Shown: positions 873-12,450, numbered from the stretch's first letter. The stretch: 64,000 bases of DNA from an uncultured Actinomycetota bacterium (GCA_963795105.1 CAWCGD010000001.1:917097-981096), one strand, 5' to 3'. Notes: generated by a model from the letters alone, not told the origin. Program-made: numbers and translations.

Positions 873-2376
873 CGTCGACGCTTTCCGACCACTTCGAGGT
901 CGTCAATCCCGGAACCGGTGCGGTGGTCGGGACGCATCCCATCCACACGGCGAGCGACATCGCCGAGCGGCTGCGCGCTCGCCCGCGAGGTGCAGACCTG
1001 GTGGGTCGAGCAGGGGTGGACCAGTCGGAAGCAGGTCATGACGAAGTGGGTCCGCTGGCTCGCCGCCCGCTGCCGAGGAGATCTACGAACTCGGGCACCA
1101 GGAGACTGCACGACCGATCCCGGACGTCCAGATGGAGTTCATCGCCGGCCTGGAGGAGATCCGTTGGGCCGCGGCCAACGCACGCGCGGATCCTGAAGCC
1201 TCGCGCGGTCGCTCCCGGTCATCGCCTTCGCGAACTACGCCGCCCGCGTTGTCACACGAGCCGCTCGGCGTCGTCGGGCTGATCACGCCGTGGAACGTGC
1301 CCGATCTACACGGTGCTCAGCGGTATGGCGTGCTCGCTTGCGGCCGGCAACGCCGTGATCGTCAAGCCGAGCGAGCTCAGCCCCGGCGTCGCAACGTTCG
1401 TCATCGACGGCTTCCACGATGCCAATCCCGACGTCCCGCGCGGTCTGGTCAGCCACGTGCACCGGGCTCGCCGACACCGGCGCCGCCCTCTGCCGCTCCG
1501 GCGTCGACAAGCTCGCCTTCACCGGGTCGGTGCCCACCGGACGGCGGGTCATGGCGACCTGTGCCGAGAACCTCACGCCGGTCGTGCTGGAGCTCGGCGG
1601 CAAGGATGCCGACGGTCGTCGCCGAGGACGCCGATCTCGACGCAGCCGCGCGGCCGTCGTGTGGGGCGCGTTCTTCAACGCCGGCCAGGCGTGCGTCGGT
1701 GTCGAGCGGGTGTACGTCGTGCGCGCAGGTCCGGGACGCCTTCCTGGATCACGTGAAGCGATACGCCGAGCAGGTCACCGTCGGGTTGCAGGACGACGCA
1801 AGCTACGGACCGATGATCACGCCCGGACAGGTCGACATCGTGCGCCGCCATATCGCCGCGGCGCTCGACGGCGGTGCGCACAGCGCTCGTCGGCGGCCCA
1901 GAGTCCGTGCGCCCACCCTTCATCGACCCAGTCGTGCTCGTCGACGTGCCGGAGAACAACCCGGCCGTAGCGCGAGGAGACCTTCGGCCCGACGCTCGTG
2001 GTCAACACCGCTGAGGACGTGGACGACGCGATCCGGCGGGCCAACGGCACGTCGTTCGGCCTCGGCGTCGTCGGTGTTCTCGGCACGACGCGGCGACGAG
2101 ATCGCAGGCAAGCTGCGCGCCGGCGGCGTCACGATCAACGCCGTGCTGTCGTTCGTCGGCATGCCGTCGGTCCCGTTCGGCGGAGTCGGTGACTCAGGAT
2201 TCGGCCGTTTCCACGGTGCGGCCGGACTGCGTGAGTTCACCTACGCCAAGAGCACAGTGCGTAAGCGGTTCAACATCCCCGGTCCCGAGGTGCAGTCGTT
2301 CCCGCGCACGCCCGACCAGTACGACGCGGTGCGCACCATGATCCGAGTGCGCTACGAGCGCAGGTTCCGCGCTTAG
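869..2376 (+). CDS. Aldehyde dehydrogenase family protein, several apparent frameshifts
   Basis: Motifs spread over frames: GVVGLITPWN, LAAGNAVIVKPSE, AFTGSVPTG, LELGGKD, FFNAGQACV, EETFGP, PFGGVGDSGFGR. Confidence 0.85.
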
Positions 2377-4022
2377 TTGCCTGAGGAGATCTTGAGCTGC
2401 TGGTCGCGATCGGCAACCTTGACCCGAGGCCGGCCGGCGTCCTTGCCCGACGCGCGTTCGTGCTCGTCGAGCCGCGTCCAGCTCGCCAGGTCAACGATCG
2501 CAACGCCGCGCTCGGTGAGCAGCGCGTCGAACGTCGAATCGTCTCCCACCTTCTCCGTCAGGCGGCCGTCAACGTAGTCGTTGAGGATCGCAGCCGTGGT
2601 CTCAACGGCACACGCCCGGTTTGTCCCGATGACGCCGGTGGCTCCGCGCTTGGCCCAACCGGCGACGTAGGTGTGCGAAACGACCGCGCCCGACTCAGGA
2701 TCCGTCACTCGTCCGCCGGTGTGCGCGAACCGACCGGCTACCTGATCGAACGGGACCCCGGCAGCGGGCACTGAGCGGTAGCCGGTGGCACGCAGCACGA
2801 GCCCGGTGGGAAGCGCCTCCGTATCGCCGTCGCCAGCGGTCCGGGACAGCGCCAGAGATTCCACCTGGCCGTCACCCAGGATCTCCTGCGGAGTGAGCCC
2901 GAAGCGCAAAACCAACCGCTTCGGACCACCGTTGGGCCCCTCGGCTGCGCGACGCAGCAGCGCCGCCTTCTGCCGGGCGGCAAACGTCGCAGCGGTTCGC
3001 TCGTCGGGGCCGGCCGTCGGCAACGACGCCAAATCATCCGGCTCGACCACCACGTTGATGTCCGGATGATTGACCAGGGCCAGCAGCTCGGCCGAGGTGA
3101 AGGCCGCGTGCTCCGGGCCGCGACGGCCCACAACGACGACTTCCTCAATGGCCGACTTCGCGAGTGCGTCGACGGCGTGCGAAACCATGTCGGAAGAAGC
3201 GGTCAGTACGTCCGGGCCCACCAGCAGCAGACGGGCAACATCGAGCGCGACGTTGCCATTGCCAATGATCACGGCTCGCTCGTGCTCCAGCGGCGGATCG
3301 AGGTCGACCCAATCGGGATGCCCGTTGTACCAGTTGACGAAGTCGGCGGCCGCGTTGCTGCCGCGTACGTCCTCGCCCGGGATGCCCAACGTCCTGCCCT
3401 CCGAAGCGCCGGTCGCGTAAACGACGCAGTGGTGGTGTTGGAGCAGCTCGTCATGCGTCACGTCACGGCCAACCTCGACGTTGAGCCGCAGGCTGATCGG
3501 CTTGCGCCGGGTGAAGTCCTCGAACATCGCCGTCACCTGCTTGGTGTCGAGATGATCGGGAGCCACGCCATGGCGGACGAGGCCGTGCGGAGTCGCCAGC
3601 CGGTCGATCAGTGTCACTTCCACCGTGGCGCGCCGACTGCCGGCCAACTCGTCGGCGACGAACCACCCGGCCGGTCCTGTGCCGACGACGGCGACACGCA
3701 GCGGCTCGGCCTGATCCTCCGCGCGCGCACCGCCCGATGAGTGCGCCATCGGCGCCGGTATGTCGCCAACCCACGCGAAGTAGTCAGCGTTGATCTGCGT
3801 GTACTCACTGAGATGGTCGGGCACTTCGAGATCGGCGTGGACCGCCCCAACCGGGCACGCGTCCACACATGCGCCGCAGTCGATGCACTCGTCCGGATGG
3901 ATGTAGAGCATCTCGGCCGTGGCGAACTCAGGCTCGTCGGGCGCCGGGTGAATGCAGTCGACCGGGCAGACGTCGACGCACGACGCATCGTTACAGCACG
4001 ACTGGGTGATGACGTATGTCAC
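2373..4022 (-). CDS. fprB: Ferredoxin--NADP(+) reductase with N-terminal 4Fe-4S ferredoxin domain (FprB type)
   Basis: N-terminus VITQSCCNDASC..CPVDCIHP..CIDCGACVDACPV; adrenodoxin-reductase motifs VVGTGPAG, IIGNGNVALDVAR, GWAKRGATGVIGTN. Confidence 0.9.
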   Translation of the reverse strand: MTYVITQSCCNDASCVDVCPVDCIHPAPDEPEFATAEMLYIHPDECIDCGACVDACPVGAVHADLEVPDHLSEYTQINADYFAWVGDIPAPMAHSSGGARAEDQAEPLRVAVVGTGPAGWFVADELAGSRRATVEVTLIDRLATPHGLVRHGVAPDHLDTKQVTAMFEDFTRRKPISLRLNVEVGRDVTHDELLQHHHCVVYATGASEGRTLGIPGEDVRGSNAAADFVNWYNGHPDWVDLDPPLEHERAVIIGNGNVALDVARLLLVGPDVLTASSDMVSHAVDALAKSAIEEVVVVGRRGPEHAAFTSAELLALVNHPDINVVVEPDDLASLPTAGPDERTAATFAARQKAALLRRAAEGPNGGPKRLVLRFGLTPQEILGDGQVESLALSRTAGDGDTEALPTGLVLRATGYRSVPAAGVPFDQVAGRFAHTGGRVTDPESGAVVSHTYVAGWAKRGATGVIGTNRACAVETTAAILNDYVDGRLTEKVGDDSTFDALLTERGVAIVDLASWTRLDEHERASGKDAGRPRVKVADRDQQLKISSGN

Positions 4023-11854: not shown

Positions 11855-12450
11855 CAGTTCCCTCGCATGACCACGTCGACGGCGGCCTCAAGCCGTTCAG
11901 TCAGCTGCTCGTACGTCATCAATCCCATGCCGGCCTGCAACAAGCCGCCCTGGAACGCGAGCATGAGCACGTCGAGAACGGCTGCGTCGGCTGGATCGTC
12001 CGGCCGTTTGGGGTCGCTGAGCGCCGTCTCGAAGCGGCTCAGGAACTCGCCGCCGATCCGAAGCCGCAGCCGCTCCACGTCCGGGCTGCTGCCCAGCAAC
12101 GCCGGTGTCACCGCGGCGGCCAGTTCAGGCTCTTCAACAATGCGTGCGGTCAGTTGGCGCACCGCGCCTTGGACTCGTACGACCGGTGCACGATCGTCTG
12201 AGACGACGACCGATTCGTCGGAGGCCAGGTGACGCCAGAACAACTCGGCAAACAAGTGGCTCTTCGAGGCCAAATAGGTGTACGCGGTCGCGGGCGAGAC
12301 ATTGGCACGCTGCGCCACGCTGCGGATGGTGAGCGCCTCGTGGCCAACCTCCCGGAGCTCCGCCAAACCGGCCGCTAGCAACTTGTCGACCGTTTCGACC
12401 TGGCGAACGTTCAGCCCCTGCCGGGGCGCCTCAAACACCTGACTGGACAC
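11854..12450 (-). CDS. TetR/AcrR family regulator (Rv0767c-like)
   Basis: HTH region LTIRSVAQRANVSPATAYTYLASK; first gene of the P450 operon. Confidence 0.9.
   Translation of the reverse strand: MSSQVFEAPRQGLNVRQVETVDKLLAAGLAELREVGHEALTIRSVAQRANVSPATAYTYLASKSHLFAELFWRHLASDESVVVSDDRAPVVRVQGAVRQLTARIVEEPELAAAVTPALLGSSPDVERLRLRIGGEFLSRFETALSDPKRPDDPADAAVLDVLMLAFQGGLLQAGMGLMTYEQLTERLEAAVDVVMRGN

Follow-up and report, generated by a model that had tools for sequence, protein, structure and literature searches.

A CYP51 gene cluster with a terminal FprB-type reductase gene

The window analyzed here, a 64-kb stretch (G000:C1:917097-981096) of a 2.7-Mb genome that is 93% complete in three contigs, contains a minus-strand gene cluster built around a CYP51-family cytochrome P450 (P450), which corresponds to the mycobacterial hpoR operon and ends in a gene for an FprB-type fusion of a ferredoxin with its reductase (fprB). 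By sequence, we place the host, a soil bacterium, as an Aeromicrobium-like member of the Nocardioidaceae; the nearest public CYP51 locus belongs to an Aeromicrobium metagenome-assembled genome (MAG; 90% identity), and the rest are mostly from Nocardioides, Marmoricola, Pimelobacter and Actinomadura. The cluster as such is already known. What appears to be new, judging from the sequence and its gene neighborhoods, is a built-in reductase of its own clade, limited to small clades, which probably supplies the P450s of the cluster with electrons.

The first-pass annotation of this DNA had described eleven minus-strand genes, from tetR to fprB, with gaps of 14 nt or less. All eleven are intact open reading frames (ORFs) with junctions of −8 to +14 nt, and this gene content was right, but the co-directional run is longer than had been described: it comprises 13 intact ORFs from 14937 down to 2373, since genes for a GMC-family oxidoreductase and an enoyl-CoA hydratase/isomerase (ECH) lie upstream. 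The operon from its operator to fprB is composed as follows:

12444-12457 (12-bp core 12445-12456), no strand assigned: HpoR box TGGACACATGTCCA, a perfect match to GGACANNTGTCC, enclosing the GTG start of tetR
11854-12450, minus: TetR-family repressor at the HpoR (Rv0767c/Ms5860) position, 198 aa; Pfam TetR_N, synteny, start inside the HpoR box
10619-11854, minus: second P450, at the CYP123 position, 411 aa; Pfam p450
9837-10616, minus: short-chain dehydrogenase/reductase (SDR) of Rv0765c type, 259 aa; NCBIfam PRK07775, 368.6 bits (cut-off 260)
8425-9840, minus: CYP51, sterol 14-alpha-demethylase family P450, 471 aa; PDB 7tef/1e9x; ATGA overlap with the SDR stop
8222-8425, minus: 3Fe-4S-type ferredoxin (fdx), Rv0763c type, 67 aa; PDB 8AMP, Pfam Fer4_15, CQGHQLC...CP
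7561-8220, minus: NTF2-fold protein at the Rv0762c position, 219 aa; fold comparison of an AlphaFold model
6080-7564, minus: aldehyde dehydrogenase (aldA), Rv0768 type, 494 aa; NCBIfam TIGR04284 'aldehy_Rv0768', 810 bits (cut-off 775)
5319-6065, minus: SDR of Rv0769 type, 248 aa; NCBIfam PRK07774, 389.9 bits (cut-off 303)
4438-5322, minus: HIBADH-like NAD(P) dehydrogenase, 294 aa; Pfam NAD_binding_2 and NAD_binding_11
4029-4445, minus: carboxymuconolactone-decarboxylase-family protein (CMD), 138 aa; Pfam CMD
2373-4022, minus: FprB-type ferredoxin/reductase fusion, 549 aa; GTG start 6 nt past the CMD stop

Four further features lie upstream of the operon:

12494-13321, minus: ECH, 275 aa; Pfam ECH_1; 4-nt overlap with the GMC stop
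13318-14937, minus: GMC-family FAD oxidoreductase, 539 aa; Pfam GMC_oxred_N and GMC_oxred_C
14974-14987, no strand assigned: second HpoR-like box TGGACAACTGTCTG, one mismatch to GGACANNTGTCC, 37-50 nt before the GMC start
15006-15019, no strand assigned: KstR-type box TCGAACGGGTTCTA (motif TnnAACnnGTTnnA), between the GMC gene and a divergent gene at 15030-16280

Within the operon the junctions, with overlaps given as negative values, are −1 nt (tetR/cyp123), +2 (cyp123/SDR), −4 (SDR/cyp51), −1 (cyp51/fdx), +1 (fdx/NTF2), −4 (NTF2/aldA), +14 (aldA/SDR), −4 (SDR/HIBADH), −8 (HIBADH/CMD) and +6 (CMD/fprB), and ECH is separated by 43 nt from tetR on the same strand. No terminator-like sites were seen between the operon genes; in the scan for such sites their frequency was not above that in shuffled sequences.

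Predicted products

Residues 1-87 of the FprB-type protein resemble a 7Fe ferredoxin (FdxA_Actino, E 1.7e-24; Pfam Fer4; PDB 2v2k, E 1.7e-20) and keep all eight cluster cysteines in the pattern CC-x4-C-x3-CP ... C-x2-C-x2-C-x3-CP. Residues 107-546 resemble FprA/adrenodoxin reductase (1lqt, E 6e-89), and the nucleotide-binding motifs GxGxxG and GNGNVALDVAR align with those of FprA.

Among the likely electron acceptors, the cyp51 product matches M. tuberculosis CYP51B1 (7tef/1e9x) over nearly its whole length (632 bits, E 3e-189, residues 31-468 over 16-450), which assigns it by full-length sequence to the CYP51 family, with predicted 14-alpha-demethylase activity. The operon ferredoxin has as its top PDB match 8AMP (E 1e-11), with which it has the CQGHxxC...CP motif in common. 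The PDB names this entry a 'possible ferredoxin', and it is presumably the Fdx structure from M. tuberculosis described in a 2022 preprint. The second-best PDB match of the operon ferredoxin is to the ferredoxin domain in the CYP51 fusion from M. capsulatus. Compared with its syntenic counterparts, the P450 at the CYP123 position shows 53-88% identity in at least 70 loci and 55-56% in the Nocardia-like Mycobacteriales genus g61 (6-10-Mb genomes; same family as the mycobacteria-like genus g45, whose naming as Mycobacterium is inferred from synteny distances), so that the label 'cyp123' should be taken as one of position and of identity to the syntenic P450s of relatives. For CYP123 itself there is no solved structure.

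Two of the remaining products needed closer attention. The 219-aa protein gave no family match in Pfam, NCBIfam or PDB sequence searches, and its earlier label 'NTF2-like' was borne out by fold comparison: an AlphaFold model built from 37 syntenic homologs (pLDDT 85.9, pTM 0.79) returned 231 PDB matches at E <= 0.001 in Foldseek, the top 50 of them with probability 1.0 and TM scores of 0.50-0.69 on the target, among them limonene epoxide hydrolase, SnoaL cyclases and ketosteroid isomerases. The model thus predicts an NTF2-like alpha+beta cone fold. The HIBADH-like protein falls under every NCBIfam equivalog cut-off; it and CMD, which together with aldA and the second SDR answer to the Rv0768, Rv0769, Rv0770 and Rv0771 gene types, are identified by Pfam only.

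A conserved operator at the start of tetR

Upstream of tetR, the sequence TTGCAC-17 nt-TAGATT is followed by the palindrome TGGACACATGTCCA, which occurs only once in the window, and at least 50 of the 68 related loci surveyed for such sites have a box in this position, around the tetR ATG or GTG. The 12-bp palindrome GGACANNTGTCC is bound by HpoR (Ms5860/Rv0767c) in M. smegmatis, as determined by electrophoretic mobility shift and reporter assays (PMC5909442). Because the palindrome at the tetR start is this published HpoR box, we identify the cluster from its sequence as an hpoR operon, with the box as the predicted binding site of its own TetR. The position of the box further suggests that tetR is probably leaderless, and the autoregulated first gene of the operon.

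The one-mismatch box at 14974-14987 before the GMC gene is kept at the same place in the Aeromicrobium loci L024 and L033, and the KstR-type box at 15006-15019 is the sole match in the window to the KstR motif TnnAACnnGTTnnA (PMC1995591). Of the 68 related loci, 31 also have a GAAC-N2-GTTC box at −23 or −57 relative to tetR, against 0.6 expected. Adjoining KstR-type and HpoR boxes suggest, as sequence motifs, dual control involving a steroid-catabolism repressor. KstR-type boxes stand beside HpoR boxes in related loci as well, for example L010, L014, L086, L158 and L160. The intergenic region with the two upstream boxes is common to the GMC gene and to a plus-strand gene at 15030-16280, which encodes 416 aa with coding-like codon bias and has no Pfam match. 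Separately, in one relative (L089, G019:C147, 3772-5059) ECH and tetR are about 1.3 kb apart, and the DNA between them starts with a sequence resembling the tetR promoter/operator (TAGACTCAACACATGTCC); it may represent a duplication of a regulatory region or an additional small gene.

The one-strand layout is common, and the reductase tail is confined to two genera

We surveyed the gene order at the 80 best CYP51 loci, one genome per species, and found a one-direction layout to be the rule, in about 70 of the 80 (Nocardioidaceae, Actinomadura). Almost all loci that were long enough to judge have tetR-cyp123-SDR-cyp51-fdx-NTF2-aldA-SDR-HIBADH-CMD on one strand. In seven loci these genes likewise share a strand but tetR has shifted behind CMD, in five of the seven together with cyp123. 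The one-strand layout is thus the normal state in Nocardioidaceae, recurs in genomes of several Actinomadura, Spirillospora and Haloechinothrix, and is no peculiarity of the host genome. The initial annotation had treated the joining of two mycobacterial half-clusters on one strand as special, which these loci contradict, being arranged in this way as a standard. Its picture of mycobacteria was accurate: within a class-wide sample of 401 genomes, those of genus g45 have a divergent cluster, with FprB 116-290 kb off on the same replicon.

The reductase gene is distributed differently. Among 66 loci with sufficient sequence past CMD, it directly follows CMD in eight, of which two are from Aeromicrobium MAGs and six from Nocardioides species that are close relatives of one another, and the linkage is hence not unique to the host genome. 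Downstream of CMD the relatives are otherwise heterogeneous, although ORF picking there was crude, being noisy in high-GC DNA, and serves here only to show that the downstream context varies. The GMC gene lies upstream in seven of the eight fprB-linked loci, and in the eighth (L005) the contig starts within the hydratase gene. CMD and fprB are coupled in relatives by ATGA overlaps in five Nocardioides loci and by TTGA in G019 and G075. A literature search found no paper describing a linkage of a CYP51 cluster with an FprB-type gene. Two further observations concern the tail-bearing Nocardioides loci (L010, L014, L015, L017, L018, L020): their operon ferredoxin is only 43-51% identical to that of the window, as against 56-83% elsewhere, and a small ORF and a convergent P450-like ORF seem, by crude ORF clustering, to follow fprB.

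Within the host's genus the association is close. CYP51 is present in 8 of the 81 sampled Aeromicrobium-genus genomes (and in 48 of the 401 genomes of the class-wide sample), and the reductase clade of the window type occurs in all eight CYP51-positive genomes and in one of the 73 CYP51-negative ones, lying directly behind CMD in seven of the eight. A reductase at least 67% identical to that of the window is found in nine of the 81 genomes, and most of the others have only copies of 41-55% identity; genomes with a tail-less cluster have only a general-type FprB, 43-53% identical. The G+C content over the NTF2-fdx-cyp51 segment (window 7000-10000) is 63-65%, compared with 67-71% in the flanks, which, taken together with the presence of CYP51 in so few genomes of the genus, is compatible with lateral acquisition of the cluster.

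One could suppose that the adjacency is neutral, the reductase being separately transcribed or inactive and the arrangement a rearrangement that a small clade inherited. The overall rarity of the linkage agrees with this, but we regard it as very improbable: the 549-aa frame is intact, all eight cysteines of the Fe-S clusters are present, both dinucleotide-binding motifs align with FprA, the 6-nt gap behind CMD leaves no room for a promoter where the stop and start codons of relatives overlap, and the CMD-fprB junction has been retained although the proteins are only 57-82% identical.

Beyond fprB in the window, an aldehyde dehydrogenase (ALDH) gene at 869-2376 on the plus strand is convergent with it, and a few bases of its 3′ end overlap the fprB stop. 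The Pfam and TIGR matches of this gene are spread over at least two frames with an in-frame stop, and this frame-broken gene is either a pseudogene or the product of assembly indel errors.

The linked reductase forms a clade of its own

In a maximum-likelihood tree of 67 FprB-type proteins, the cluster-linked reductases of Aeromicrobium and Nocardioides form one clade (100/99) that is sister to all other FprBs, and the proteins at the Rv0886 position in g45 cluster with the 'general' Aeromicrobium FprBs (100/99). The reductase had first been taken for the ortholog of M. tuberculosis FprB. Because its clade stands apart from the Rv0886-position proteins, the window gene is by this phylogeny no Rv0886 ortholog; we place it as a lineage-specific dedicated paralog with FprB-like architecture. 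General-type FprB is missing from the host genome and apparently also from its closest relatives, G024 and G060.

Two genomes of the genus carry the reductase in another context. In G002 and G099 the stop codon of ECH and the start codon of fprB overlap as ATGA, and no CYP51 cluster separates the two genes; G002 has a differently ordered CYP51 cluster elsewhere in its genome, and CYP51 was not detected in G099 (a 93% complete genome), which has nevertheless kept the reductase. The ECH-fprB unit of G002 retains HpoR-like and KstR-type boxes. Its full arrangement (L086, G002:C11, 8646-14532) runs from a KstR-type box and an HpoR-like box through ECH and fprB to genes for a DAP_DH_C-domain protein, an SDR and an FAD_binding_2 flavoprotein, with overlapping junctions and a divergent luciferase-like monooxygenase gene upstream.

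A model of the operon and the evidence that bears on it

Our preferred reading, which we hold with some reserve, is that the window carries the Aeromicrobium version of the cyp51/hpoR cluster, the counterpart of Rv0762c-Rv0771 in M. tuberculosis and Ms5855-Ms5865 in M. smegmatis, as one operon, in which an FprB-type reductase of its own clade supplies the P450s. Transcription would most likely start at the promoter whose HpoR box encloses the start codon of the leaderless tetR, and the transcript would run through eleven translationally coupled genes to fprB, under repression by TetR. The HpoR-like and KstR-type boxes upstream of the GMC-ECH pair suggest that it falls under the same regulon, and its transcription may continue into the operon. 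Electrons would pass from NADPH to FAD, on to the reductase's own Fe-S domain, from there to the 3Fe-4S ferredoxin (or directly to the P450s), and finally to CYP51 and the CYP123-type P450, and co-expression of the reductase with these P450s would make the operon self-sufficient in reducing power. Since the host has no other FprB-type protein, the same reductase would probably serve some of its about seven other P450s too.

Several observations weigh against this reading. No linked reductase is found at 58 of the 66 CYP51 loci or in any of the mycobacteria-like genomes, and a reductase lies near CYP51 in none of 13 randomly drawn Nocardioides of the class-wide sample; with such rarity the linkage does not, as had earlier been proposed, generally define the gene set of the pathway outside mycobacteria. 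The CYP51-positive Aeromicrobium may be one subclade, and the co-occurrence of the two genes there would then be a single historical event. A strict sigma-70 scan of 1800-15300 found no promoter, and the promoter assignment rests on conservation, not on a consensus score. For M. tuberculosis, two reports (bioRxiv 10.1101/2022.11.02.514812; PMC6208970) cite the in vitro reconstitution of an FprA/FdR-Fdx (Rv0763c)-CYP51B1 chain. Specificity of the window reductase for CYP51 is also doubtful, because the host genome has about nine P450 genes and three small ferredoxins with only two reductases of this type. Finally, because the reductase is coupled to ECH in G002 and G099, and CYP51 was not detected in the latter, it can persist without CYP51 and is not exclusively a CYP51 partner, so that a broader role is favored; in G002 the gene past fprB overlaps it by 4 nt, and the reductase can accordingly join a downstream module.

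Carried further, some of these points would make the reductase a general housekeeping NADPH:ferredoxin oxidoreductase for all P450s and ferredoxin-dependent enzymes, without a special tie to CYP51. This is the alternative that we take most seriously, while still considering it unlikely. It draws on the position of the protein as the sole FprB-type reductase of the host beside so many P450s and ferredoxins, on the closest relatives G024 and G060, which likewise show only this type, on the survival of the reductase in G099, and on the many CYP51 clusters that have no linked reductase. It does not account well for the restriction of the clade to genomes in which the cluster stands, or until recently stood, at this locus, given that other Aeromicrobium carry a different, Rv0886-type general FprB, nor for translationally coupled junctions in two genera or for two more independent FprB recruitments behind HpoR boxes, which are described below.

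The gene order in G002 and G099 also raises the question whether the reductase belongs instead with the GMC/ECH module, and in relatives with downstream dehydrogenases, the CYP51 cassette merely lying in between. The ATGA coupling of ECH to fprB, the GMC-ECH pair upstream at fprB-linked loci and the overlapping genes for DAP_DH_C, SDR and FAD_binding_2 proteins behind fprB in G002 can all be read in this way. An origin by insertion of a ten-gene cassette into a resident ECH-fprB pair was considered and rejected, as the G002 and G099 reductases are nested among the linked ones and the linked Nocardioides fall outside. Because the ECH-fprB genomes are nested inside the linked group of the reductase tree, their arrangement is best read as a loss of tetR to CMD, the simpler and more parsimonious history, rather than as the ancestral state. 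The G002 pair moreover still has its HpoR-like and KstR-type boxes and hence would remain in the same regulon, and neither a GMC oxidase nor a hydratase requires a ferredoxin reductase. We therefore think it improbable that the reductase belongs primarily to this module.

Other pairings of FprB-type genes with the HpoR regulon

The reading of the window as an operon with its own electron supply can be set against two other groups of FprB-type genes. In 8 of 101 genomes of genus g61, CYP51 is immediately followed by an FprB paralog (with a 1-nt overlap, TGATG, in G165), and an HpoR-like box lies about 40 nt before CYP51, behind a conserved TAGTACT. A comparison of L158, L159 and L160 showed that in two genomes with this bicistron the main cluster has SDR-cyp123 divergent from aldA-SDR-HIBADH and is without cyp51, fdx and the NTF2 gene, and that in a genome lacking the bicistron fdx and the NTF2 gene are still present and cyp51 stands by itself, with an HpoR-like box of its own. 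This gene content suggests that the FprB-type fusion can replace the small ferredoxin in g61, and because the small ferredoxin is missing from its usual place in the bicistron genomes, the Fe-S domain of the fusion may there reduce CYP51 directly. A luciferase-like monooxygenase gene was also seen two genes from the g61 bicistron, behind a divergent SDR gene.

In g45, two genomes carry an extra FprB with two perfect HpoR boxes upstream and a divergent TetR paralog whose ATG lies inside one of the boxes. Such TetR/FprB pairs are rare (2 of 301 genomes of the family), and none of the 18 other loci sampled in g45 has an HpoR box before its Rv0886-position FprB; the idea that the Rv0886-type gene is tied to the regulon without being adjacent was accordingly rejected, since only the extra g45 paralog has HpoR boxes. 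In Mycobacterium sp. VKM Ac-1817D, the TetR/'ferredoxin' pair G155_10530/10535 carries 'motif X' at two sites, phytosterol induces it 7.5-fold and the cyp51 cluster 2.5- to 43-fold, and motif X was assigned to the Rv0767c ortholog (PMC6593523). By analogy, the g45 pair appears to mirror G155_10530/10535, of which G155_10535 may be an FprB-type protein.

As the three HpoR-associated FprB groups form separate clades, they would represent separate recruitments: the operon tail of Aeromicrobium and Nocardioides, the Nocardia-like CYP51-FprB bicistron, and the mycobacteria-like TetR/FprB pair with its HpoR boxes. We tentatively propose, as a possibility that falls short of even chances, that in actinomycetes the HpoR/CYP51 regulon has FprB fusions as its natural source of electrons, and that these have been recruited to it at least three times independently. 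Because independent CYP51-FprB pairings occur behind the same operator elsewhere, a role of the FprB-type protein as physiological reductase of the regulon is at least plausible from these arrangements.

Two further loci place FprB-type genes in other company. G019 has a recent duplicate of its cluster-linked reductase directly upstream of a different P450, and this duplicate (L085, G019:C42, 8187-15093) heads an operon with the P450 and a split aldehyde dehydrogenase, with two acyl-CoA synthetase genes upstream. At L045 (1363-7350), an fprB of another lineage is followed by pntA and pntB (NAD(P) transhydrogenase), and a divergent thiolase gene precedes tetR-cyp123-...-CMD. As this FprB lies 1.3 kb upstream of tetR and heads an fprB-pntAB operon divergent from the thiolase gene, we took it as a weak or coincidental association with the cluster; reductase and NADPH supply may be paired beside the cluster there.

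Discussion

To our knowledge, 25 years of work on actinobacterial CYP51 and its gene cluster have revealed neither a substrate nor a native reductase. If FprB fusions are indeed the electron donors of the regulon, as tentatively proposed above, FprB, which has had no known function ever since the M. tuberculosis genome, gains a physiological role, and actinobacterial CYP51 gains a native redox chain, most likely for the processing of exogenous sterols. The comparative pattern, consisting of an FprB clade of its own, a bicistron, and HpoR boxes before FprB genes, names a concrete candidate for the electron donor. The conserved promoter architecture outside mycobacteria also joins strands of literature that have stood apart, namely the 'hpoR operon' of H2O2 resistance and c-di-GMP response, the 'motif X' regulon and the KstR-type boxes, and a sterol-related role is therefore favored. 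By analogy with the mycobacterial cluster, its phytosterol induction and the KstR-type boxes together point to sterol or steroid processing.

The closest known system is the mycobacterial hpoR operon (Ms5855-Ms5865; Rv0761c-Rv0771; PMC5909442), which has the same gene families from TetR through CMD and the same operator GGACANNTGTCC at the regulator's own start. Its TetR repressor is HpoR (Rv0767c), for which Li et al. (2018, PMC5909442) reported c-di-GMP-responsive derepression and a contribution to resistance against H2O2. The window differs in having all genes on one strand with the repressor first, whereas mycobacteria have two divergent operons, and it lacks adhB but has the FprB-type tail, together with GMC, ECH and a second box upstream. 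The 'motif X' regulon of VKM Ac-1817D (Bragin et al. 2019, PMC6593523) resembles this HpoR-box architecture in both its palindrome and its phytosterol-induced cluster.

M. tuberculosis FprB (Rv0886) has the same architecture as the window reductase, a 7Fe ferredoxin joined to an FprA/adrenodoxin-reductase-like part, at about 550 aa, and the statements on FprB in papers of 2019 and 2022 (PMC6469627) give its partners as unknown. The window protein is 43-47% identical by BLAST (44-50% by HMMER scoring) to Rv0886-position proteins of mycobacteria-like genomes and falls in a separate clade; Rv0886-position genes, by contrast, have no upstream HpoR box at the 18 g45 loci sampled.

The M. tuberculosis chain with FprA or FdR follows the same class I logic, in which an NAD(P)H-dependent flavoprotein and a 3Fe-4S ferredoxin serve CYP51, and uses the same type of ferredoxin. 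Those reductases are unlinked and have no ferredoxin domain, whereas that of the window lies in the operon and has an Fe-S domain of its own. The CYP51-ferredoxin fusion of M. capsulatus (PDB 6mcw; Lamb et al. 2020, PMC7947880) likewise ties a redox partner to CYP51, but it does so by joining ferredoxin and P450 in one protein and has no linked reductase, whereas in the window the ferredoxin is free and it is the reductase that is linked through the operon.

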